Assembly: GCA_035510735.1 (NCBI GenBank)
Contig: DATKGN010000013.1
Span: 192,596 to 256,595 of the forward strand
From: Patescibacteria group bacterium
GTDB lineage: Bacteria; Patescibacteriota; Microgenomatia; UBA10105; UBA927
DNA: 64,000 nt
Direction: 5' to 3'
Positions 2,945 to 27,265 of this stretch are shown here, piece by piece. Position 1 is the stretch's first letter. Each line of letters opens with the position of its first letter. Position numbers and translations under genes: made by a program. A model generated the notes under the pieces. The model did not search any database and was not told the DNA's origin. It worked only from the letters and a program-made list of their open reading frames with translations.

Positions 2945-3625
2945 TTATTCTTCTTCCGATAGTCTATAACCACTAAATCCTTTGACGGTATGAATCAGAT
3001 GATTTTTTGGAAAAGGGTCGTCTATCTTCGCTCTCAGATGTCTAATGTAGACCTCTACCGAATTAGGGAGCACATCAGCGTCGTAATCCCACACATGGTG
3101 AATAATTTGTTCTTTCGTAAGAGTCTGATTTTTGTGGTGCATTAGATACTCAAGAAGAGAGTATTCTTTATTTGAAAGTCGAATTTTTTGACCTGCTCGT
3201 TTTACCTCATAATTCGTAGTATCGAGAGTTAGATCAGCAATTGTTAAGATTGTGCCAGCAGAGCTTTGAGGACGGCGGGTCAATGCTTTGATTCGTACCA
3301 ATAGTTCAGCAAAAGCGAATGGTTTTGTTAAATAGTCATCCGCTCCAGAATTGAATCCAAGTACTTTGTCTTCAATTTGACTTTTCGCAGTTAGCATCAA
3401 AATAGGGGTATGAATATTATTCTCTCGAAGCTTTTTGCAAATTTCAATACCATCCACTCCGGGCAACATGACGTCTAAAATGATGACATCATATTCCTCT
3501 GTAACTGCCATATCGTAGCCTTCGTTTCCGTTGTAAATTACATCGACAGCGTATGATTCGTGCTCCAAGCCTTGTTTAACCGCGTTGGCAATTTTATGTT
3601 CATCCTCTATAACCAGAATTCTCAT
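2945..3625 (-). CDS. OmpR/PhoB-family response regulator
   Basis: MRILVIEDE...DVMLPGVDG receiver domain followed by a winged-helix trans_reg_C domain. It is separated by 2 bp from the kinase gene. Confidence 0.9.
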   Translation of the reverse strand: MRILVIEDEHKIANAVKQGLEHESYAVDVIYNGNEGYDMAVTEEYDVIILDVMLPGVDGIEICKKLRENNIHTPILMLTAKSQIEDKVLGFNSGADDYLTKPFAFAELLVRIKALTRRPQSSAGTILTIADLTLDTTNYEVKRAGQKIRLSNKEYSLLEYLMHHKNQTLTKEQIIHHVWDYDADVLPNSVEVYIRHLRAKIDDPFPKNHLIHTVKGFSGYRLSEEE

Positions 3626-15375: not shown

Positions 15376-16404
15376 CTATTTCACCGCAGTTAATACGCCC
15401 ATATACGCATGTTCTTTCACTTGTTGTCCTAAAGCGGGATCAGGGTGACCGGTCAGTATGTCAAAGCCGTACAAATATTCTGTTCCCGGTTTTTGTTGTC
15501 CTTGCGCTTGGCCGGTATATGTGTCATCTAATAATCTCACCGTCACGTTCGTAAATCCAAGACCTGTCATCGCTTCATACGCGATCCGGTGAGAGTCTGC
15601 GATAGAATCGATAACGTCAGGTTCAAACCCTAATTCTTTTTGTGCGCGTAAAAATACAAAATTGTGTTGCAAAGATTGGATCTCTTTATCTGCTGTTATT
15701 CGTGTTGTGAACGCCCGTTTCCAGGGTTCCTGAAGATCCATATAGGCAAACCAGAATTCTTTGAGCAATGGCGGCTGTTTATTGCCAAAGACGACCGCCT
15801 GCTCGCGGGTCATCGAAATATAGTAACTGTGAGTAAGATCTTCGTAAGGAAAAAACGGTAATAATATTTTATCTGCATACCGTTTATACAAAATATATTC
15901 ATCCGGTAACAGGTCGGTGAGTATCACGAGCGGACCTCCCGGCTGTAACACCCGGTGAATCTCTGACAGGGGCGGGGCAATGGGTTCAAACTGGTCAAGT
16001 AAATTAAGACTTACGATGGCCTCCTGTGAATTATCGGGTATGTTTAAGCTATTGAGATCTAAATGCAGAACCGGAGCGCGGTCCCCAAGGTGTTTCCGGA
16101 CACGCTCCGTGTCAATATCAGAGTAGGTTATGGTAAGAGACTTACCTGCTGCTTCCACTAATCGATGAAAAGCTCCGGTCCCGGTTCCCAGCTCCAACAC
16201 GCGTTTTTCTTCTAATCTCATTTCCTCTATCACCTGCCCGACGATTTTACCCCTGGCTCTCAATGCATATGATCGGTCCAAATCACCCCGAATCAATGCT
16301 TCCTCTGGTGTTATTCTTCCTATATCTCCGACGGAGCCGAATCGTTTCAGGCCATACTCAATTGCCTCTTCGATTTGTTTCCTATATCCGAATTGTTCCT
16401 GCAT
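15376..16404 (-). CDS. SAM-dependent methyltransferase domain protein with C-terminal extension
   Basis: Motif I VLELGTGTGAF, plus LQPGGPLVI. Confidence 0.65.
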   Translation of the reverse strand: MQEQFGYRKQIEEAIEYGLKRFGSVGDIGRITPEEALIRGDLDRSYALRARGKIVGQVIEEMRLEEKRVLELGTGTGAFHRLVEAAGKSLTITYSDIDTERVRKHLGDRAPVLHLDLNSLNIPDNSQEAIVSLNLLDQFEPIAPPLSEIHRVLQPGGPLVILTDLLPDEYILYKRYADKILLPFFPYEDLTHSYYISMTREQAVVFGNKQPPLLKEFWFAYMDLQEPWKRAFTTRITADKEIQSLQHNFVFLRAQKELGFEPDVIDSIADSHRIAYEAMTGLGFTNVTVRLLDDTYTGQAQGQQKPGTEYLYGFDILTGHPDPALGQQVKEHAYMGVLTAVK

Positions 16405-18027: not shown

Positions 18028-18546
18028 ATGCAAAGCATTAATCAGACGCAAGCTGCTATTGCTAAATATCAAGTTGCAATAAATAAAAATATCTCTGAAA
18101 GTGAAATTCTTTGGAACCGATACAACGCTCTATTAGTTTTTAATTCAATACTCATAACGGCGATAGGATTTTCATATCAGGGGAACTTAAACCTACCATT
18201 ACTTGTGGTTGCCAGCTTGCCAATCGCGGGGCTTCTGTCGTGCTATTTGTGGTTTATCGTCACACTTCGCGGTTTTCAGTGGATAAAATTCTGGACAGTT
18301 ACAGCTAGAAAGATCGAAGAAAAATATCTACCTGATGATAATCCTATTTTAAATCCGATAAATAATGGCAAAAATCATAGGGAGGATGTTGTTGGGTGGC
18401 CTAAAACTCAAATAGCATCTTATATATTAATTTTGGTAACAGCTATTTTGTATCTTATTTTTTTAGCCAATCTACTGAATACAAAATCGTTTCACAAAAA
18501 TATTTTTCATTCACAACAACGAACAATGCACCGGTATATTAAATAG
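18028..18546 (+). CDS. hypothetical membrane protein (3 TM)
   Basis: 172-aa AT-rich ORF with hydrophobic helices. Confidence 0.4.
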   Translation: MQSINQTQAAIAKYQVAINKNISESEILWNRYNALLVFNSILITAIGFSYQGNLNLPLLVVASLPIAGLLSCYLWFIVTLRGFQWIKFWTVTARKIEEKYLPDDNPILNPINNGKNHREDVVGWPKTQIASYILILVTAILYLIFLANLLNTKSFHKNIFHSQQRTMHRYIK

Positions 18547-18584
18547 TGTTACTTTTTGTTAGACCCTCTAGGTAGGTTTCTACT

Positions 18585-18625
18585 TCACACCCTTCGTAAT
18601 CGCTCCTCCGTGGGATCAAAGTACA
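18585..18625 (-). repeat. decayed copy A of ABC-exporter 3' terminus (most degenerate)
   Basis: Minus-sense ...cccacggaggagcgattacgaagggtgtgaagtag aligns, with indels, to the real terminus ...ccgcggacacgctatcgttgaggaagcagagtaa. Confidence 0.45.
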
Positions 18626-18722
18626 AGAGAAATTAAAGCTTTAGCTTGTCGCGAATGGTATAATTGCGCTGAAGTAATAATTGAACTGCGACTCTATATC
18701 GGTCTCTAATTTACTATATTAC

Positions 18723-19604
18723 ATGAAAAAGGCACAGGTTTTTATAAGCTGTGGACAAAAAGATGATAGCGAAAAAGTCTTTGGAGAATATTTAGAAAAA
18801 TACTTCGTGGCTCGTGGTTTTGACACATATTTCGCTGAAGAAGTTCATAGCTCCAAGCCCCTATTACTGAGCATATTCGACGCTCTTAAAGAAAGTGAAT
18901 ATTTTGTTAGCGTTAACCCTCATAGAAAAGAAACGGGCGATACAGGTTCAATATTCGTTCAGCAAGAAATTGCGGTCGCTTCTTCATTAAGAATGCCTAT
19001 TATTGCATTTCATCAAAAGGGAGTACGAAGAACAAATGGTATGTCTGGGGGCCTCCATCTTAATAGCATTGAGGTTAATGAACCGAGAGAAATGAAGCAT
19101 CTGTTGGGCAAGGTCACTGCTTTGTGGGATAACACATCTAGAAATCAGCTTTTCCTGAAGATAGCTAATCCAAGTCTAAATATTCTAAATCAAAACAGTC
19201 AACTTACAAATTGGTGGCATATCTCTTGTCGGAATGGATCAAGTCTTAAACACGCAAAAGGATGTATGGCTTATATAGATAAAATTTTTGGTGCAAATAG
19301 AAAAAATATAATAACTATACCTTATAAATGTGAAATAGTGTGGGCTGGAGTAGGAATACATAGCATAACAATTGCTAAAAAAACTGAGAGGGATTTTGAC
19401 GCCATATTTACATTCAACGGATCAGGCGTATGGCACCCACAAATATTACAAACATCAACTATATACAAATATCCTTCATTAACAGATGGCATATATAATA
19501 TTGAATATTTAGTTGTAAGTGATAATTTTCCCGACGCGAGATTATTAGTTAAATTGAAGCTTCAAAAAGATATTATGACAGTCATAAAACAAAGACAATT
19601 ATAG
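18723..19604 (+). CDS. TIR-like (TIR_2/DUF1863-type) domain protein with unknown C-terminal domain
   Basis: N-terminus VFISCGQKDDSEKVFGEYLEKYF...EYFVSVNPHRKETGDTGSIFVQQEIAVASSLRMPIIAF follows the TIR_2 pattern (vFISY..D ... S.W...E). The roughly 170-aa C-terminal half is beta-rich and unassigned. Confidence 0.5.
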   Translation: MKKAQVFISCGQKDDSEKVFGEYLEKYFVARGFDTYFAEEVHSSKPLLLSIFDALKESEYFVSVNPHRKETGDTGSIFVQQEIAVASSLRMPIIAFHQKGVRRTNGMSGGLHLNSIEVNEPREMKHLLGKVTALWDNTSRNQLFLKIANPSLNILNQNSQLTNWWHISCRNGSSLKHAKGCMAYIDKIFGANRKNIITIPYKCEIVWAGVGIHSITIAKKTERDFDAIFTFNGSGVWHPQILQTSTIYKYPSLTDGIYNIEYLVVSDNFPDARLLVKLKLQKDIMTVIKQRQL

Positions 19605-19619
19605 TCGAATGATATAACT

Positions 19620-20456
19620 ATGAAGAGAAAACTTATCGACGTTCCTATTCAGTATGAGAGCATTATAAAAACTGCCTTTATTACAAGAACAAAATCTATA
19701 AATGACTTTAAGGAACGTGATTTTAAACGTTTAATTAAAGCTGTGCGGGATAGTGGCATTAAGAATAGATATGTCCTATCAGATATTGATAAGGATAATT
19801 ATCTAGTTCCTGACACTGATTTAACCGTGACTGTCATTAAAGATAAAAACCCTACAAGCGCAATTTCGCTAAATAAGGCTCTTCAGAGGATAAGAGAAGA
19901 TGATGTTAATCCGAAAGCATTTTTGATTTCCTCGCAAGAGGTGATCTTAACGGATGATCATATTAATAGACTCATTAAAGTGTTAAACGACGACCCTACT
20001 CTTCTTGTAGCTGGGTATAAATTTACCATTAAGGATGAAGAATTAAATAGTGAGTTGCAGTGGTATTATGCAAGGAAAAAATTGATAGCGTTTAAGGTGC
20101 CCTGGAATACCTGCGCCCTCTGGAATTACAAGTTATTCGATAAGTACGTGGAAGAGTTTGATGAAATCACGACTAAAAACCCTTTTAACCCAGTGTGTGT
20201 TTGTATTGATAACGTCTGCAGTCAAACAGAACACGTGGGAATGGAGGATGGGCTTGCTATTGCAAAGGCATTGACTCAAAATGAACGTCTAAAATACAAG
20301 TTAATAAGTGCGGACCCACCACTCTGTTGGAAAGTCAATGTTGATAGAATAAATGAACATAGGAAAAAACTTGCCAGAAAAGATACAGTAATGCGAGATT
20401 TTATGGAGGTTAAAAAATATTCTATCGATAAGTCACGAAATGCTAGGATGGAGTAG
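19620..20456 (+). CDS. hypothetical protein, possibly GT-A-fold glycosyltransferase-like
   Basis: C-terminal VPWNTCALWNYKLFDKYVEEFDE...GMEDGLAIAKAL resembles the GT2 acceptor/ED motif region; weak. Confidence 0.35.
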   Translation: MKRKLIDVPIQYESIIKTAFITRTKSINDFKERDFKRLIKAVRDSGIKNRYVLSDIDKDNYLVPDTDLTVTVIKDKNPTSAISLNKALQRIREDDVNPKAFLISSQEVILTDDHINRLIKVLNDDPTLLVAGYKFTIKDEELNSELQWYYARKKLIAFKVPWNTCALWNYKLFDKYVEEFDEITTKNPFNPVCVCIDNVCSQTEHVGMEDGLAIAKALTQNERLKYKLISADPPLCWKVNVDRINEHRKKLARKDTVMRDFMEVKKYSIDKSRNARME

Positions 20457-20550
20457 ACCTGTCCTGGAGTACCGAATTGATAGGTTCCTACTCAATATCC
20501 TCCGTAATCGCCCTTCCGCGGAATTGGGAAATATACAAATCGGACGGAAA
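20457..20550 (-). repeat. decayed copy B of ABC-exporter 3' terminus plus conserved downstream segment
   Basis: Minus-sense gatttgtatatttcccaattccgcggaagggcgattacggaggatattgagtag reads DLYISQFRGRAITEDIE*, versus DLYNSQFRGHAIVEEAE* in the real gene. It starts 15 nt after the stop of CDS 20555..21265. Confidence 0.7.
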
Positions 20551-20554
20551 TTCT

Positions 20555-21265
20555 TTACGAACTCGTTCCACTAGGTTTATCTTTCAACCATCTTCTGGAA
20601 GTATATATTAACCTGCCGTTAAACGGTCCGCTGTGATTAGGATCGAGTTTTGATAAATTCTCAACTAAAACCCTGTCATCCGCAGACAATTCATGCAACC
20701 TTTCCAGTAGGTTTTCCAATAAATTATTGTCATGAAAGTATCCCCGCAGGTGATACTTTTCACTCGATTGTTTGATTTTGTTCATGCTATCCTCTAAGGC
20801 TTGATATGTATCATCAGCAAGGAGCGTAAGCTGTTGAATCCGATAATCATCCTCATGTGTAAATCGAAACAACGCAATACTTGCGCCCATATATGTTCCG
20901 AGCATAACGGAGGGGTTTCTGATTGTGCCGATTATATAATCCGTTGATTGATGTAAAAGATTATTTTCTTCTGGGGTTCTTGAGGTTTTTGCACAAAGAG
21001 CTTCGCCCATCCACGCCATTGTTGTCATATTGCATTCTACTAATGATGAAACTACAACCACTTCGTCATCACTCTCAGTAGGAAACCTATCGACCAGAAT
21101 CTGAAGAACTTCAGTCGGTTTCTGCAAAAAAAATGATTCAACTTTAGCCCTGTATTCAAATGGACTGCGGGTTTTTAATAGATTATCGACCGATTGAGCA
21201 AGAGTTATAATATTTTGATCGTTTTGCGGAGGTAATATTTGCTTCGGAGCACCTTCATCTATCAT
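20555..21265 (-). CDS. hypothetical protein (236 aa), cassette gene
   Basis: MIDEGAPKQILPP...; no motif recognised. It is flanked by copies C and B. Confidence 0.45.
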   Translation of the reverse strand: MIDEGAPKQILPPQNDQNIITLAQSVDNLLKTRSPFEYRAKVESFFLQKPTEVLQILVDRFPTESDDEVVVVSSLVECNMTTMAWMGEALCAKTSRTPEENNLLHQSTDYIIGTIRNPSVMLGTYMGASIALFRFTHEDDYRIQQLTLLADDTYQALEDSMNKIKQSSEKYHLRGYFHDNNLLENLLERLHELSADDRVLVENLSKLDPNHSGPFNGRLIYTSRRWLKDKPSGTSS

Positions 21266-21299
21266 ATGAAGAACGATACAATATTCTGTAATTCGTGTC

Positions 21300-21395
21300 C
21301 AATTTCATCCTGACAGATGTACGAATTATTGTTTACAATTCCATAACCGCCCGGCCGCGGAATTGGGAATTGGAGAGGTCGGCGTATTTCATAAA
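21300..21395 (-). repeat. decayed copy C of ABC-exporter 3' terminus plus conserved downstream segment
   Basis: Minus-sense reads FMKYADLSNSQFRGRAVMEL*, followed by ACAATAATTCGTACATCTGTCAGGATGAAATTGGA. Copy E has the related GGAATAATAATTGTACATCCGAGGGACGGAATTGGA. Confidence 0.7.
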
Positions 21396-21451
21396 GTCGG
21401 AGCGCAGCACGTATGAGATCTCCACAGACGTATTTATTCGGCAAAAATTAA

Positions 21452-22723
21452 TTAAGAATCGAAGGAAGACAAAAAAGCATTTAACTTTTCCGATAATGCT
21501 TTCCAAAGTGGTTTGATTACAAACTTTGCTTCCTCATCAATTTCCGAACTGAATTGCGATGTTGCAATGGCGTACCTTTTTTCAAGTTCAGTTTTCATAT
21601 AACGCAAACTATTTTGTGCCTGAGGAGATACAGATTCCGGAAGTAATCCCAATGCGGTAAGGGCGTAGAAAAAAGTCAAAGCATCTCTTCTTAACGAAGG
21701 TAATACTACTGTTTCAAGTGATTCGCCTGAATGCGTATCTTTACGATCAATTTCCACGGCAGGCATGACTACATCCTCAGATCCGTTTAAAATTTTTTCT
21801 GCAACAGACTCCGACAAATAGTTTAGAGCATCTCGATACGTTGGTATTTCCTGAACCCTGTCTGTTGGATCAAGTTTTTTTAACCCATAACCATATGGAT
21901 TATTTTTTGTAGCCATATCCATATATATTGAATATAGGCCATCCGGAGTTGTAAGAACACCGTCATAACAGGCAACAGTCATTGAATCTCTGCTTATTAC
22001 CTGTCTTTCTGGGTGTCGAATAAATTTACCCAATTTTTTTATTGTTTCTTCGTTCACTTCTTTGGCAACCCTAAATTGTCCCTCAATATACTTTGCATCT
22101 AAACCCAACGTGTAGAGTTGTCTTTTGATTGAATAAACTGTTTCTTTATTTGAATCGGTTATAGAAAATCTTACGGTATGAAGCGAGGTGTCGTTATATA
22201 AAGTTATATCACGCTTCGAAACGTCCTGAAGATGCTGAAGAAGTTTAACAACTATTGCTTCAGTTCCTTTCGGAACAGTAGTGGATGTATATATTTTTTG
22301 TTCACGCCGTAAATGCGGAATTAATGCGGAAACCACATCATCGTAATCATATGAAGTCCCGTCTTGTCTGTTGCCGCTTATATCAAACGGGTCAGACGCC
22401 CAATAGAGTGCGACCCGTTCAGGCAGATACTTCGCGTATTTTGTAGCAAATTGAGTGAATGACTCAAAATCAAAACCTGATGTAATTTTACGTTTAACAT
22501 CAAAACTACACCATGGGCAACCTCCAGTACAACCATCTGTAAATTGTAGATGCTGCATACCTTTTAATAGGGATTGTCTGACCGGTTCGGGGAAGGCCTC
22601 AAACATTTGGAGAATGTCAACAGGATCTCTGTTCCTCCTCATCTCTATGAGAGAATATATTCTGTCTGTTATTGGGAAATTGTTTGATTGGGGTGTTAGA
22701 TCTGATTGTCGTGATTCCGGCAT
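21452..22723 (-). CDS. putative radical SAM protein (atypical; CTGGCPWC = Cx3Cx2C)
   Basis: 423 aa with the single cluster QFTDGCTGGCPWCSFD at residues about 60-75. No SPASM or second cluster. C-terminal 150 aa is helical. Confidence 0.45.
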   Translation of the reverse strand: MPESRQSDLTPQSNNFPITDRIYSLIEMRRNRDPVDILQMFEAFPEPVRQSLLKGMQHLQFTDGCTGGCPWCSFDVKRKITSGFDFESFTQFATKYAKYLPERVALYWASDPFDISGNRQDGTSYDYDDVVSALIPHLRREQKIYTSTTVPKGTEAIVVKLLQHLQDVSKRDITLYNDTSLHTVRFSITDSNKETVYSIKRQLYTLGLDAKYIEGQFRVAKEVNEETIKKLGKFIRHPERQVISRDSMTVACYDGVLTTPDGLYSIYMDMATKNNPYGYGLKKLDPTDRVQEIPTYRDALNYLSESVAEKILNGSEDVVMPAVEIDRKDTHSGESLETVVLPSLRRDALTFFYALTALGLLPESVSPQAQNSLRYMKTELEKRYAIATSQFSSEIDEEAKFVIKPLWKALSEKLNAFLSSFDS

Positions 22724-22794
22724 GTCTAAATTCTATCATGTAAAGTAATTATTTCTTAATTCGTCATCGGGTAAGAGAAATTTATTACTGGATT

Positions 22795-22850
22795 TCTGTT
22801 CCGAACTCTCCGTAATCGCTCTCCCCCGAAACTGGCTGTTATAAGGGTGG
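22795..22850 (-). repeat. decayed copy D of ABC-exporter 3' terminus
   Basis: Minus-sense reads HPYNSQFRGRAITESSEQ; about 60 nt upstream of the radical SAM start. Confidence 0.65.
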
Positions 22851-22930
22851 GCGTGTTCAGATGAGCCTATAGTTGACTTTTGAAAACTACTTCCTATAAT
22901 TGAGAATAACTTGTTTCTATTTTAGATTGT

Positions 22931-23521
22931 ATGAATACGCACCACGAAATAGCTGAAATATCCCAAGAGTTTGTGGGAATAGACGACTCACTCAGAGCCG
23001 ATATATTAAACGGTTCTCACGAATGGTTACAATCATACATAACTGTTGTCTCTGAAATTGATAACCGGTTATCAGATAAAAATCCTGACCGGATTATCAG
23101 CGGACTCCTCATTGACGAGCTTAAATACAATAAAACTCAGGAACTACAAGCGGCGGCCCTTACTATTCACCGAGCTAAAGACGCGCATACGAGGCCGGAT
23201 GCACGGGACTGGAAAAGAATACAGGGAGCTATCGGGCATGACTGGTTTTATGCTGCGCTCATTGTACAAGTTTTTGGTGACCGAATGCCGGAAGCCTGCC
23301 ATACTTTTTTGGCAAAACAAGTAGACGACATAAAACCGTTTGTCAGGCAGGTCGTGACGACAAACACACCACTAGATCCACAAGAGATGTGGCATCCGGT
23401 AAAGAGCTTCCAACATGCTTTGGAGCGCATTCGGGAGAGACCTGAACTTGGGGTAACGCAGGAAGATGTTAATTACGCCCGGGAGCAACTGCTGTCAATC
23501 GGTAAACTCAATCGCCACTAG
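22931..23521 (+). CDS. hypothetical protein (196 aa), cassette gene
   Basis: ORF with a plausible start; no motif recognised. Confidence 0.4.
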   Translation: MNTHHEIAEISQEFVGIDDSLRADILNGSHEWLQSYITVVSEIDNRLSDKNPDRIISGLLIDELKYNKTQELQAAALTIHRAKDAHTRPDARDWKRIQGAIGHDWFYAALIVQVFGDRMPEACHTFLAKQVDDIKPFVRQVVTTNTPLDPQEMWHPVKSFQHALERIRERPELGVTQEDVNYAREQLLSIGKLNRH

Positions 23522-23528
23522 AGTAGAT

Positions 23529-24044
23529 TCAAAAATATTCCTCAGAATTTATTCCTTCTTTTTTCATTCTATCTGAAGCCTCCCTTAATAGCGGATTCAG
23601 TTGCCTGCACGCATATATACCTACTTCCTTTAAGCCTAACGCTTCAAAAGCTTCAGGTTCGCTATAATCATTTCTATCTCTTCCTTCTCCTGCTAAATTA
23701 ACCTTATGCATAAGAAGCTCGTTGTAAACTTGATATTGATTCAGTGCGGTATCGATTTGTCTAACAAGGTCTCTATTATGTTCTAAGAACTGGGCCCATG
23801 GTCCTGCACATTCTGCTTCCACGCGATTTAAAGGTACATACAAATTTTTCCTGTATTCCTGAGGGTCAGCTGCTTTTTCAGCTCCAAACAAAGATTGAAA
23901 AAGTCTCCAAAAATTGTTGCCAAACAACTCAGGGTCGTTGGTTCGCTCAGAGGGAGTAAATTCGTCTGGTGGTACTTTCGGTGCACGTATTACCAGATCA
24001 ACATAATAATCGTGGGGATGGCTTATTGGTGCACGGTCGTTCAT
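23529..24044 (-). CDS. hypothetical protein (171 aa), cassette gene
   Basis: Convergent with the previous ORF; no motif recognised. Confidence 0.4.
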   Translation of the reverse strand: MNDRAPISHPHDYYVDLVIRAPKVPPDEFTPSERTNDPELFGNNFWRLFQSLFGAEKAADPQEYRKNLYVPLNRVEAECAGPWAQFLEHNRDLVRQIDTALNQYQVYNELLMHKVNLAGEGRDRNDYSEPEAFEALGLKEVGIYACRQLNPLLREASDRMKKEGINSEEYF

Positions 24045-24089
24045 TTAGAGGATCATATCAAACTATAACATCTTGTCAAACTTTTGAGG

Positions 24090-24172
24090 AATGTTCCAAT
24101 TCCGTCCCTCGGATGTACAATTATTATTCCTTATCCTAAGTAACCGCCCCCGCGGAGAACTTCTGTTCTCAC
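24090..24172 (-). repeat. decayed copy E of ABC-exporter 3' terminus plus conserved downstream segment
   Basis: Minus-sense cagaagttctccgcgggggcggttacttag reads QKFSAGAVT*, followed by an AATAATTGTACATCCG...GGACGGAATTGGA block shared with copy C. Confidence 0.55.
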
Positions 24173-24457
24173 CGCCTTAAGGCCGCATCTCTTATAGGTC
24201 AAGATGCGGCACAAAGGGCCGTAATTCTCACTATGTATGAACGCATTAAGAAACGAGCCCTTAAGGCCGCATCTTTTAATAACTTGATCGATTTAGACCC
24301 GCGTGTTTGTCGTCATTCTGGCGAGCGAGTCAACGAGAGTGTCCAGAATCCCAACCGGATGCTGGACAAGCCAGCATGACGAGAAAACCTTTCCAAACGA
24401 GCCCTTAAGCTATTCATCAGTTTCGGGTTATACGATACGACTCTTAACTGAAAGGGG
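24172..24457 (+). other. hairpin- and repeat-rich non-coding region (candidate sRNA or regulatory leader) upstream of CDS 24458..25033
   Basis: Direct repeats aaacgagcccttaaggccgcatct at 24172-24191 (partial), 24252-24278 and 24396-24411 (partial). Hairpins ggccgcatct-N11-agatgcggc, attctgg-N21-ccagaat and atgctgg-acaag-ccagcat. Confidence 0.3.
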
Positions 24458-25033
24458 GTGATATATATCGTTACTAAAAAACAAATACTAACAGCCGCAG
24501 CTTCCATCGCCATAATCGGATCAGTCGTCGCAGTTCCTATGCCGGCATACGCCGCAGGGAATGGCTTTTTTGGAGGGAGTAATTTTCTCTCCAATTTTGT
24601 CAACTTTTTCTCACAAAAGTTTGGACTCGACAAAACGCAGGTTACCAATGCCATGAATGACTTTCACACGCAGCAAATGGCAAATACCACACCGCGTCCG
24701 ACGCCGACCCAACAGCAGATGGATGCACGGGAAAAGGCCAGGCTCGATCCGCTGGTGACTTCGGGCAAGATAACAGCAGCTCAGGAGACGGCGATCATCG
24801 CCGAGCTTGACGCATTGCATACGAAATATCCACCTTCGGCCGGACAAACATCGGATCAACGGAAAACCCAGATGCAGAACATGCAGAACGACTGGAAAAC
24901 GTGGGCTACAGCCAATAATATCGATCCGACCATCGTAGGCGCCGCAGGCGTGGGCATGATGGGAGGCAGAGGAAGAGGGTTTGGAAGAGGAAATTGGGGT
25001 AAAACTACTCCAACTCCAACACCGACCCCGTAA
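24458..25033 (+). CDS. secreted hypothetical protein with signal peptide and C-terminal TPTPTPTP tail
   Basis: GTG start at 24458 after RBS AAAGGGGG (start uncertain). KKQILTAAASIAIIGSVVAVPMPAYAAG signal peptide; Gln/Met-rich; ends GRGRGFGRGNWGKTTPTPTPTP. Confidence 0.45.
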   Translation: MIYIVTKKQILTAAASIAIIGSVVAVPMPAYAAGNGFFGGSNFLSNFVNFFSQKFGLDKTQVTNAMNDFHTQQMANTTPRPTPTQQQMDAREKARLDPLVTSGKITAAQETAIIAELDALHTKYPPSAGQTSDQRKTQMQNMQNDWKTWATANNIDPTIVGAAGVGMMGGRGRGFGRGNWGKTTPTPTPTP

Positions 25034-25123
25034 TTAAGCAATATCGCCAACCAAAGCACCCTGATAAGTCAGGGTGCTTTGAAACGTACTTATTAAACCT
25101 AGAAAATAGATTGTTCTCCACAT

Positions 25124-25185
25124 TCAAAGTCGCGGCCCTCCGCAGAACTGAGAATTAGAGGTCGGCGTATACCACAAAAACTCAT
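25124..25185 (-). repeat. decayed copy F of ABC-exporter 3' terminus
   Basis: Minus-sense reads FLWYTPTSNSQFCGGPRL*, versus real GFYADLYNSQFRGHAIVEEAE*. It lies 120 nt downstream of the real stop. Confidence 0.6.
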
Positions 25186-25194
25186 TTCGTAACT

Positions 25195-25300
25195 AAGTTT
25201 TTGAGTATAGACCCACCTAATCAAATTTTTCGTCCGAGGGACTTGTCCCGCACGAAGCCTGGGATCTAGCGACAAATTTGAGTAAGGTGGGATCTAAAAT
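25195..25300. repeat. inverted-repeat element, copy 2 (see 8700-8770), abutting the ABC-exporter stop codon
   Basis: ttgagtatagacccacctaatcaa ... ttgagtaaggtgggatctaaaatcc, with internal hairpins gtccgagggac and ttgtcccgcacgaagcctgggatctagcgacaa. Confidence 0.5.
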
Positions 25301-25303
25301 CCT

Positions 25304-27265
25304 TTACTCTGCTTCCTCAACGATAGCGTGTCCGCGGAATTGGGAGTTATACAAATCAGCATAGAAGCCTTTTTGGGCAAGGAGCCTTTTATGTGTCCCC
25401 TTCTCTATAATTGCCCCGTGATTCATGACGAGGATGAGATCGGCGTCGCGGATGGTTGAGAGCCGGTGGGCGATGACAAAACTCGTCCTACCCTTCATAA
25501 GCTTCCCCATGGCTTCCTGAATAAGAAGTTCAGTCCGGGTATCGACGCTGCTCGTTGCTTCATCAAGGATAAGGATCTCGGGATCAGCCAGGAACGCACG
25601 GGCGATAGTGAGAAGTTGTTTCTGGCCTTGGGAAATGTTCGTGGCGTCCTCGTTTAACACCATCTTGTAGCCCTCAGGAAGCGTCCGTATAAAGTGGTCG
25701 GCGTAGGCCTCTTTTGAAGCCAATACGATTTCTTCCTCCGTTGCATCTTCGCGGCCGTAAGCGATATTATCCCGGAGCGTCCCATGGAAAAGCCAGGTAT
25801 CCTGTAAGACCATACCGAACATTCGGCGAAGATCGGCGCGTTTGAGTTTTGTGATATCAACGCCGTCAACCAAAATTTTTCCGCCGTTCACTTCGTAGAA
25901 ACGCATGAGTAAATTAACGAGGGTCGTCTTGCCGGCTCCGGTCGGTCCCACAATGGCGATCATATGACCCGGTTTTACATCAATATTCATATCTTCAATG
26001 AGGATCTTATCTTTGCTGTATCCGAATTTGACGTGCTCGAATTTGACGGCACCCTTTGGTTCTTTGATAACCTCAGGTTTGGCTATTTCCTTGACCTGTT
26101 CTTCCTCATCCAAAAGCTCAAAAACCCGCTCGGCGGAGGCGATTGCGGACTGGATGACGTTTGCGATATTGGCAAGCATGGTGATGGGCTGGGAAAATGA
26201 AGAAGAATACTGGATAAATGCCTGCACGTCACCGATTGAAATGGCGCCCTGTGTGGCCATGATGCCACCGACGACTGCGACGAGGACGTAGCCAACGTTA
26301 CCGACAAACCGCATGAGCGGCATGATGATACCGGAAACAAATTGCGCCTGCCATCCGGCTTCATAAAGGCTGTTATTGAACACATCAAACTGGGCGATCG
26401 CTTTGTGTTCATGCCCGAACGCTTTGACGATCTTGTGCCCCGAATACATTTCTTCGACGTGACCGTTTAAGTCACCGAGTGACCGTTGCTGTTTCCGGAA
26501 GAAATCCTGTGAGCGTTTCGCAATACCGGTCACGACAAATATGCTAAGAGGAAGTGTTGCAAGCACGATGAGTGTTAGCTGCCAGCTAATTGAGAGCATC
26601 ATGATAAGAACACCGATGAGAGATACGACGGAGGTAATAAGCTGCGTCACGCTCTGCTGGAGCGTCGAGCCGATGTTATCCATATCGTTAACCGCGCGGC
26701 TTAAAATTTCTCCGTGCGTACGCCCGTCGAAGTATTTGAGCGGCAATCGCGAGAGTTTTTCATCCACCTCTCGGCGCAATTTGTAGATCGTACGCTGCGC
26801 AACACCTGCCATCAGGAATTGCTGGATGAAAATAAAAACAGAGCTTATGACATAGAGTCCGAGCAAAATAAGAAGAACCCTTCCGATATAGCCGAATTCG
26901 ATGCCGGGAACGGGCGCCAGATGGAGAGGAAGTGTGGGGTTCGCAAGCAATTGCTTTTGGACGACGGAATTTTTTACCTGCACGATGAAACTCGCAAGCA
27001 AATCATTGAAAAGCTTGGTGGTCGCGAGTCCCAATATTTTCGGGCCCACAATGTTAAATATCGTACCCATGATGGCTGAGATAACGACGATCGAAAGGAG
27101 AGTTTTTTCCGGTCGGAAATATCCTAACAGTCTCTTGAGTGTCCCCCCGAAATCTTTTGCCTTCTCGACCGGCCTGCCCATAGCACCCCAGCCGCCCCGA
27201 TTCATGGGGTTCGCATGCACTTCATCACGCGGTTTATTTTTTAGTTTGGTTGCGTCATCACTCAT
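25304..27265 (-). CDS. ABC exporter, fused permease/ATP-binding subunit (MdlB/MsbA-like)
   Basis: 653 aa: 6-TM domain then an NBD with Walker A GPTGAGKTT, LSGGQ-like ISQGQKQLLTIARA, and Walker B ILILDEATS. Confidence 0.9.
   Translation of the reverse strand: MSDDATKLKNKPRDEVHANPMNRGGWGAMGRPVEKAKDFGGTLKRLLGYFRPEKTLLSIVVISAIMGTIFNIVGPKILGLATTKLFNDLLASFIVQVKNSVVQKQLLANPTLPLHLAPVPGIEFGYIGRVLLILLGLYVISSVFIFIQQFLMAGVAQRTIYKLRREVDEKLSRLPLKYFDGRTHGEILSRAVNDMDNIGSTLQQSVTQLITSVVSLIGVLIMMLSISWQLTLIVLATLPLSIFVVTGIAKRSQDFFRKQQRSLGDLNGHVEEMYSGHKIVKAFGHEHKAIAQFDVFNNSLYEAGWQAQFVSGIIMPLMRFVGNVGYVLVAVVGGIMATQGAISIGDVQAFIQYSSSFSQPITMLANIANVIQSAIASAERVFELLDEEEQVKEIAKPEVIKEPKGAVKFEHVKFGYSKDKILIEDMNIDVKPGHMIAIVGPTGAGKTTLVNLLMRFYEVNGGKILVDGVDITKLKRADLRRMFGMVLQDTWLFHGTLRDNIAYGREDATEEEIVLASKEAYADHFIRTLPEGYKMVLNEDATNISQGQKQLLTIARAFLADPEILILDEATSSVDTRTELLIQEAMGKLMKGRTSFVIAHRLSTIRDADLILVMNHGAIIEKGTHKRLLAQKGFYADLYNSQFRGHAIVEEAE

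Follow-up and report, generated by a model that had tools for sequence, protein, structure and literature searches.

The stretch of DNA considered here (the window) comprises 64,000 nucleotides of contig DATKGN010000013.1 from an ultra-small bacterium of the Patescibacteria group, and one of its genes raises the question of what a solitary, unannotated protein with a radical S-adenosylmethionine (SAM)-like cysteine cluster might do. The coding sequence occupies positions 21452..22723 on the minus strand, starts with ATG and encodes 423 amino acids (aa), and was reproduced from the list of open reading frames (ORFs) exactly as an initial annotation had claimed. The identical NCBI entry is titled 'hypothetical protein VMR81_07900 [Patescibacteria group bacterium]', and an identical protein was found on 7 contigs from different samples, with the same locus on all of them. 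The initial annotation had described an atypical radical SAM-like protein, perhaps of a distinct family, and had framed it by viperin-like antivirals; its considerations left out the nearest known kin, the PoyD-type amino-acid epimerases of peptides made on ribosomes and modified after translation (RiPPs). From comparisons of sequences and profiles, the product of this gene, here called a divergent PoyD-like radical SAM protein, is very probably a radical SAM enzyme with a specific relationship to PoyD. Our best explanation overall, to which we give a probability of roughly 45%, takes it for a functional radical SAM enzyme with one cluster, from a sister family of PoyD, whose chemistry is of the C-alpha epimerase type and acts on a peptide or protein.

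The whole protein contains only four cysteines (residues 65, 69, 72 and 252). Three of them make up the motif C65-x3-C69-x-W71-C72 (22508..22531, minus strand) and, judged from the translation and from conservation, are the predicted ligands of a SAM-binding [4Fe-4S] cluster. The Cx3Cx2C cluster of the initial annotation is thus present, but not at residues about 62-69 where it had been placed, as the segment GCTGGCPWCSF occupies residues 64-74. In an alignment of 115 homologues, C65, C69 and C72 are conserved at 100%, and position 71 is aromatic in 107 of the 115 members (F 76, W 27, Y 4). An aromatic residue before the third cysteine belongs to the canonical CX3CX(aromatic)C radical SAM motif. 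Thus, the Pro-Trp at this point, which had been called unusual, fits the canonical motif and is not unusual, and the three cluster cysteines, being invariant in 115 homologues, are not coincidental. With four cysteines in total, the protein cannot form an auxiliary cluster, be it of SPASM, twitch or another type, as the initial annotation had correctly seen.

Since the protein's own match to the Radical_SAM profile (PF04055) falls below the cutoff, its identity was decided at the family level. A word-indexed search of 5.8 billion proteins returned only seven relatives (35-61% identity), among which C65, C69, W71, C72 and C252 and the segments LYWASDP, YTSTxxPxGT, VRFS and ACYDG are invariant. 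When 1.84 billion cluster representatives were searched exhaustively by profile, 392 proteins matched at E ≤ 1e-3, including 203 at E ≤ 1e-10; most of the 392 are 480-650 aa long. The family is metagenome-only and unmodelled, with about 390 clusters at 50% identity; it has no model of its own in the curated libraries, which bears out the suggestion of a distinct family. No relatives were found in a scan of viral contigs, and no description of the family was found in the literature on radical SAM in Patescibacteria and on genome mining of radical SAM epimerases. PF04055 was matched by 37 of 88 relatives at E ≤ 0.01 (best 1.6e-8), and in several of them the match spans profile positions 1-137 of 166. 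Among NCBIfam families, TIGR04517 ('radical SAM family RiPP maturation amino acid epimerase'; PoyD, OspD, AvpD and PlpD of proteusin pathways) was the leading match of the relatives (48 of 88, best 1e-11), and MiaB/RimO (TIGR00089) came second with weak matches in 16 of 88. Two metagenomic proteins of about 920 aa, P0116 and P0148, have an N-terminal class I SAM methyltransferase fused to a PoyD-like radical SAM domain, and their best NCBIfam match is a daptide-type RiPP methyltransferase (E 6e-19).

The family profile was also compared by hhalign with 24 annotated proteins of E. coli K-12 (NC_000913), six radical SAM enzymes and 18 controls. The six radical SAM enzymes took ranks 1-6 of the 24, with probabilities of 70.5% for MiaB, 64.6% for RimO, 37.7% for LipA, 31.7% for MoaA, 16.1% for PflA and 2.3% for BioB, and all 18 controls were at or below 0.8%. 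The MiaB alignment covered 170 columns (query 55-236 against MiaB 147-326). Taken together, the family-level and profile-profile evidence bears out the assignment as a radical SAM protein and overrides the PF04055 test of the protein alone, which it almost fails.

To which radical SAM enzymes, then, is the protein related? A scan of GTDB genomes gave two loci, the Curtissbacteria homologue and a short match in a metagenome-assembled genome of Pseudomonadota (L010). The protein encoded at L010:7590-9083 is a bona fide PoyD-family member, with a full-length TIGR04517 match of 480 bits against a cutoff of 325. The region 2596-11727 of L010 (JBCBXB010000018.1) is a polytheonamide-like (proteusin) cluster around this TIGR04517 PoyD epimerase; it also encodes two TIGR03975 B12 radical SAM C-methyltransferases, a HemK/PrmC-like methyltransferase and a LanM-N (DUF4135) dehydratase, and a precursor gene was not located in it. 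With the L010 protein as seed, we collected named PoyD-family proteins and aligned 40 of them; in this alignment the only invariant cysteines are the cluster triad (C144/C148/C151) and C336 in GTIACVSGF.

Against this PoyD alignment, the seven-sequence alignment of the short clade scored 97.7% by hhalign (E 2.5e-12 over 213 columns, residues 45-280 of the window protein against 125-366 of PoyD) and the 88-sequence family profile scored 98.6% (E 6.3e-16), both E-values being pairwise and without database-search correction. When the PoyD profile or the short-clade profile was set against the six canonical E. coli radical SAM enzymes as a control, the probability was at most 21%, so the protein is kin to PoyD in particular, beyond what membership of a common superfamily would give. 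Paired in the alignment are LTDGCTGGCPWC and LTDGCTVGCWFC, LYWASDPFD and YWATDPLD, YTSTTVP and PQTTTA, VRFS and NRFS, and PYGYG and PLGY. In both profile alignments, C252 (TVACYDG) is paired with C336 of the PoyD family (TIACVSG). Among about 70 PoyD homologues there is a single strictly conserved cysteine, Cys372, which has been proposed as the hydrogen-atom donor that completes epimerisation, and the C372A mutation in PoyD abolishes epimerisation in vivo (PMC8326336). C336 of our alignment probably corresponds to this C372, as it is the only invariant non-cluster cysteine among the 40 sequences.

Most bona fide PoyD-type proteins (P0158-P0277) have no precomputed PF04055 match, and the PoyD profile, run against the PDB, matched no solved structure from the PoyD clan. 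The near-blindness of Pfam and Foldseek to the present protein is accounted for by these two facts. A PDB sequence search with the 423-aa protein and with the seven-sequence profile gave nothing, and the 88-sequence family profile gave cluster-loop matches and helical noise only.

The AlphaFold2 (AF2) model built from the 88-sequence alignment is confident (predicted local distance difference test, pLDDT, 95.3; predicted template modelling score, pTM, 0.91), and the model from a shallow seven-sequence alignment had a pLDDT of 75. The predicted radical SAM core comprises residues 56-236 (22016..22558; this and the following features are on the minus strand) in alternating beta/alpha units, as placed by the AF2 model and the hhalign alignment with MiaB. 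Its strands (E) and helices (H) are E56-59, H86-99, E103-105, H127-137, E143-148, H155-176, E183-188 and H193-205, so that the beta/alpha alternation runs from residue 56 to about 205 with about four clear units against six, followed by hairpins and helices. The top Foldseek matches in both libraries are radical SAM enzymes, namely MiaB (1.9e-3), LipA, SkfB, viperin and phage Radical_SAM proteins.

The residues that would bind SAM lie where the alignments with known enzymes place them. After the second strand, A109-S-D111-P112 (22388..22399; D111 97% and P112 90% conserved in the 115 sequences) aligns by hhalign with the GGEP of MoaA and with YWATDPLD of the PoyD family, and is the putative equivalent of the SAM-binding GGE(P) motif. 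On the third strand, T146-S-T148-x-x-P151-x-G153 (22265..22288; T148 99%, P151 98%, G153 94%) aligns through T146-S-T148..P151 with TTSHP of MiaB by hhalign and with PQTTTA of the PoyD family. On the fourth strand, R185-F-S187 (22163..22171; R185 90%, S187 98%) aligns with the invariant R248-F249-S250 of the PoyD family and may contact the ribose or SAM. The segment T-V-A-C252-Y-D254-G (21959..21979) contains the only non-cluster cysteine, which from conservation and the PoyD alignment is a candidate hydrogen-atom donor; D254 (95%), G232 (97%), G278 (100%) and R346 (94%) are also conserved in the family. Residues 253-341 (21701..21967) are modelled by AF2 as a beta-hairpin-rich domain with strands at 253-259, 262-268, 279-283, 290-294, 323-329 and 335-341, whose N-terminal part can be aligned to the PoyD family up to PYGYG/PLGY. 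The model ends in three long helices (344-358, 367-389 and 397-422) that make up a C-terminal extension of residues 344-422 (21458..21694) with pLDDT above 90, in agreement with the long helical extension of the initial annotation. Apart from R346 the sequence of this extension is variable, and it has no confident alignment to the PoyD family.

Based on these comparisons, we propose the following mechanism. C65, C69 and C72 would hold a [4Fe-4S] cluster, and SAM would sit on its unique iron, placed by the A-S-D111-P loop (the GGE equivalent), T146-S-T148 and R185-x-S187. Reductive cleavage of SAM would produce a 5'-deoxyadenosyl radical, which would take a hydrogen, most likely the C-alpha hydrogen of a peptide or protein residue. 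The thiol of C252 would give a hydrogen atom to the opposite face and so leave a D-residue, as proposed for PoyD. The beta-hairpin and three-helix C-terminal region is presumably substrate-binding. Since there are no precursor or tailoring genes alongside, the substrate would be encoded elsewhere. By analogy with PoyD, epimerase-type chemistry on a peptide or protein is a tentative assignment, to which we would give a little less than an even chance.

The contexts of homologues bear on the nature of the substrate. No conserved neighbour of the short clade was found in L001, L002, L006, L007, L009, L019 and L020. The genes in seven homologue contexts are unrelated (Nudix, GNAT, DUF4256 and DUF1801 proteins; a methyltransferase; a PEGA protein; a major facilitator superfamily transporter), and one Curtissbacteria homologue lies near dnaA, rnpA, yidC and jag. 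An operon partner of the short clade was rejected, as an all-against-all BLASTP of the flanks returned the radical SAM gene alone. A common methyltransferase partner was also rejected, as the window gene at 15376-16404 and the neighbour in L002 are alike only at the generic fold level.

In the long clade (570-650 aa), an ORF of 44-58 aa ends at or overlaps the start codon of the radical SAM gene in 4 of 4 contexts (L012 5853-6014, L008 9883-10026, L025 6847-7023 and P0047 contig 3093-3227), and in every case the frame of the radical SAM gene is +1 with respect to it. The three available small-ORF sequences have in common a basic helical motif, [KR][LI][FY]x[LI]E[REDK]xx[FLYI][RKQ]x[LI]; BLASTP among the upstream small ORFs was not significant. 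We regard the small ORF as a candidate precursor peptide or partner of the long-clade enzymes. The idea that the N-terminal helix of the short clade is a fused small ORF was rejected, as its aligned counterpart in the long proteins is an internal helix. One family member lies near a B12-binding radical SAM gene. The small ORF, the methyltransferase fusions and the B12 neighbour are hints that fit peptide modification, though in distant relatives.

Several observations weigh against the reading of the protein as a PoyD-like epimerase. For the protein itself, the one Pfam match was PF04055, with 13.5 bits (E 0.082) over the cluster loop (residues 60-79) against a cutoff of 29.5; TIGR04517 was not matched at E ≤ 1, and NCBIfam gave nothing relevant. 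When ten relatives were scanned singly, six matched TIGR04517, at 12-25 bits against the cutoff of 325. The E-values from hhalign are, as noted, pairwise. With the PoyD family the protein has an identity of about 20%, a level at which radical SAM enzymes often differ in chemistry. The N-terminal 80-120 residues of PoyD, with the invariant K22/R23/E26, are missing; the PoyD region before the cluster is about 125-140 aa long and also has the invariant W112 and R113, and the cluster here begins at residue 65. C252 is 83% conserved in the 115-sequence family and is not invariant. Foldseek gave no match at E ≤ 1e-3 with the pLDDT 75 model, nor against PDB and BFVD with the pLDDT 95.3 model, where TM-scores were about 0.2, and the barrel geometry is taken from secondary structure only. 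Finally, no precursor peptide, NHLP/Nif11 leader or tailoring gene was found beside short-clade members in 9 contexts.

Many of these points would also fit a radical SAM enzyme with non-PoyD chemistry or substrate, which is the most serious rival and a real possibility, if a less probable one. Such an enzyme could act on a small molecule, lipid, cofactor or nucleic acid, or carry out cross-linking, methylthiolation or lyase-type reactions, and C252 could relay a radical, act as a nucleophile or have a structural role. In favour of this rival are the low identity to PoyD, the unmatched curated PoyD model, the missing N-terminal region and the 9 contexts without precursor or RiPP gene, together with the homologue among housekeeping genes. 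Outside PoyD, moreover, the best fold and hhalign matches are MiaB, RimO and LipA, and the C-terminal domain is unrelated to anything identified. On the other hand, the relation to PoyD is specific, as the control above showed, and the alignment takes in the one cysteine that defines the epimerase mechanism. There are also no spare cysteines for the second cluster of methylthiotransferases, LipA and SPASM enzymes; a methylthiotransferase or SPASM enzyme is ruled out by too few cysteines and the lack of such domains. The small ORF of the long clade, the methyltransferase fusions and the B12 radical SAM neighbour likewise suggest peptide modification.

The PoyD-like epimerase reading has a bolder form, which we consider rather unlikely. 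It would make the protein a leader-independent, stand-alone epimerase in a dark-matter sister family of PoyD, in which the short clade puts D-amino acids in a cellular protein or a distally encoded peptide, the long clade and its 44-58-aa ORF constitute a new RiPP class, and the gene moves as a one-gene cassette via repeated 3' ends.

The repeated 3' ends are those of an ATP-binding cassette (ABC) exporter gene at 25304..27265 (minus strand). Its true 3' end, with the terminal sequence YADLYNSQFRGHAIVEEAE before the stop codon (25304..25359), is the template of a series of remnants, all on the minus strand. These are a frameshifted remnant at ~25118-25178, copy C (22793..22851, ending HPYNSQFRGRAITESSEQ), copy D (21340..21395, KYADLSNSQFRGRAVMEL and a stop codon), a remnant at 20485-20543 (SDLYISQFRGRAITEDIE and a stop codon) and a remnant at 18577-18605 that ends GGAITKGVK before its stop codon. 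In all, window positions 18577-25359 contain six copies of the ABC end, one true end and five decayed remnants, each comprising the last 15-18 codons. All copies are co-oriented and intergenic, and between them a low-GC island falls into segments that hold 1-3 genes each. One of these segments, bounded upstream by C and downstream by D, both decayed, has no ORF other than the radical SAM gene, as the initial annotation had noted. The segment is foreign in composition, with a GC content of 0.38 and a GC content at third codon positions (GC3) of 0.30 versus a GC3 of 0.56-0.58 in the ABC genes. In the locus of the closest relative, where the ABC protein is 84% identical, the upstream side is syntenic, nothing is in common downstream, and unrelated DNA stands at the position of the island.

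We propose that the radical SAM gene was acquired by horizontal transfer as the sole gene of one segment, and that the island would have grown as DNA inserted again and again at the ABC exporter gene's 3' end; serial single-crossover insertions via a common ABC end would yield the pattern of remnants. No remnants were found in 72 related loci, and on this ground we rejected the idea that the ABC 3' end is a hot spot for insertion in general. The remnants were also rejected as coding substrate peptides, as they are decayed, frameshifted and missing from the loci of homologues. No integrase was seen near the island, although the whole window was not annotated.

Such an island could also harbour an inactive or decaying passenger gene, accumulated with other junk at an insertion hot spot and with no current function. 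The island is full of decayed gene-end remnants, the gene has no partner, and no Shine-Dalgarno sequence is visible upstream of its ATG. Against this stand the intact frame of 423 codons, the retention of all the near-invariant residues of the family, homologues that keep length and motifs at 35-61% identity, the identical protein on 7 contigs from different samples and the very confident AF2 model, and we consider a passenger gene improbable. As for its expression, a promoter-like TTAAGA-18-TAGAAT with an upstream TG lies at 22730..22759 (minus strand), the -10 end 6 nucleotides before the ATG; this is weak evidence only, as a scan for promoter-like sites counted no more of them than in shuffled sequence. 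The mRNA may be leaderless. A 97-aa ORF at window 22455-22748 (plus strand) runs antisense to the 5' part of the gene; it is a shadow ORF and no gene, because what look like its homologues in L006 and L007 are radical SAM genes read on the antisense strand.

The framing of the initial annotation, a defence island with an antiviral radical SAM enzyme, viperin-like or other, is more improbable still. What suits this view is that the radical SAM gene stands alone in an island that is variable and was horizontally acquired, and that viperins are among the weak fold matches. However, PADLOC found nothing significant for the 423-aa protein or any of 9 neighbours, there is no sign of a defence island around the gene, viperin scored below MiaB, LipA and SkfB (probability 0.15 or less, TM-score about 0.2), relatives on viral contigs were not found, the contexts of homologues are unrelated and partly housekeeping, and the specific kinship is with PoyD. 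Finally, a protein that is not radical SAM at all, with its three cysteines coincidental or part of another metal site, may have in its favour a sub-threshold Pfam match of 20 residues and the lack of a significant Foldseek match, but is most improbable given the invariant cysteines with the canonical aromatic residue, the PF04055 matches of relatives (some over at least 130 profile positions), the ranks of radical SAM proteins in the controlled hhalign comparison and the strong homology to a curated radical SAM family.

The other segments of the island contain several genes of their own. The outermost segment encodes a 172-aa membrane protein of the 8xMP family (window 18028-18546, plus strand; PF24838, E 8.9e-14). 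A neighbouring segment encodes a 307-aa protein (window 18681-19604, plus strand) that starts KKAQVFISCGQKDDSEKVFGEYLEKYFVARGFDTYFAEEV and is TIR-like by eye; Pfam and PADLOC gave no match for it. In an adjacent segment, a 196-aa protein (window 22931-23521, plus strand) has a weak match (E 3e-4 over 54 aa) to a YunG-family (PF24585) protein, which is encoded near the P0005 homologue in L001. Between 23529-24044 and 24458-25033 lies an intergenic 20-nucleotide direct repeat (24175-24194 / 24259-24278, 95% identical, CCTTAAGGCCGCATCT(C/T)TTA).

To our knowledge, PoyD-type epimerases are the only known way to set many D-residues directly in ribosomal peptides, and we know of them so far only within proteusin gene clusters; we are also aware that natural-product pathways have rarely been recognised in the reduced genomes of Patescibacteria. 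The present protein is an unannotated relative of this rare class of peptide-epimerising enzymes, and its lineage and solitary context are both unexpected. A sister family of about 390 clusters that keeps the catalytic cysteine and is unseen by Pfam and NCBIfam would extend epimerase chemistry to new substrates and to Patescibacteria, and the whole PoyD clan appears as a blind spot of annotation. The small ORF of the long clade offers a concrete precursor candidate, and from the row of ABC-terminus remnants comes a simple and testable model in which cassettes accumulate with no integrase involved.

How does the protein compare with known systems? MiaB/RimO (TIGR00089) provide the best solved-structure match (7mjz, E 1.9e-3) and the top canonical radical SAM match in hhalign. 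Unlike them, the 423-aa protein has by Pfam and NCBIfam neither the UPF0004 N-terminal domain of the second cluster nor the TRAM domain, it has only four cysteines, and the scores of its relatives are far under the cutoffs. Viperin and the prokaryotic viperins (pVips) are likewise radical SAM enzymes with a single cluster whose genes can stand alone, but the 423-aa protein has no PADLOC match, its Foldseek probability is 0.15 or less with TM-scores of 0.20-0.26, and the motif context and C-terminal domain of viperins are unlike its own. YydG/EpeE, of the SPASM/twitch type, are matched weakly and in the cluster loop only (8ai1, E 0.2). In their chemistry, abstraction of the C-alpha hydrogen is followed by donation of a hydrogen atom from a cysteine (PMC8326336), and we propose the same here. 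They differ in carrying an auxiliary Fe-S (iron-sulfur) cluster domain, which the 423-aa protein cannot, and their genes adjoin that of their own precursor peptide.

The closest comparison is with the PoyD family itself. Besides the low identity and the missing N-terminal region, the C-terminal 140 residues of the 423-aa protein are not confidently alignable, the second near-invariant PoyD cysteine (C355) is missing, and the TIGR04517 scores are far below the cutoff, with no match for the protein and 12-25 bits for relatives. Membership of TIGR04517 was rejected for these reasons. The proteusin neighbours of the L010 type (B12 C-methyltransferase, N-methyltransferase, dehydratase and NHLP/Nif11 precursor) are not near the radical SAM gene, and the gene is found in Patescibacteria and not in typical natural-product producers. 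The two families have in common the motifs LTDGCTxGCx(F/W)C, LYWA(S/T)DP(F/L)D, a T-rich third strand, RFS, (I/V)AC and P(Y/L)GY, and they align by profile-profile comparison at 97.7-98.6% probability over 213-223 columns. Both are mostly invisible to PF04055. Each has one predicted [4Fe-4S] site and no auxiliary cluster, and the conserved extra cysteine of one aligns with that of the other.

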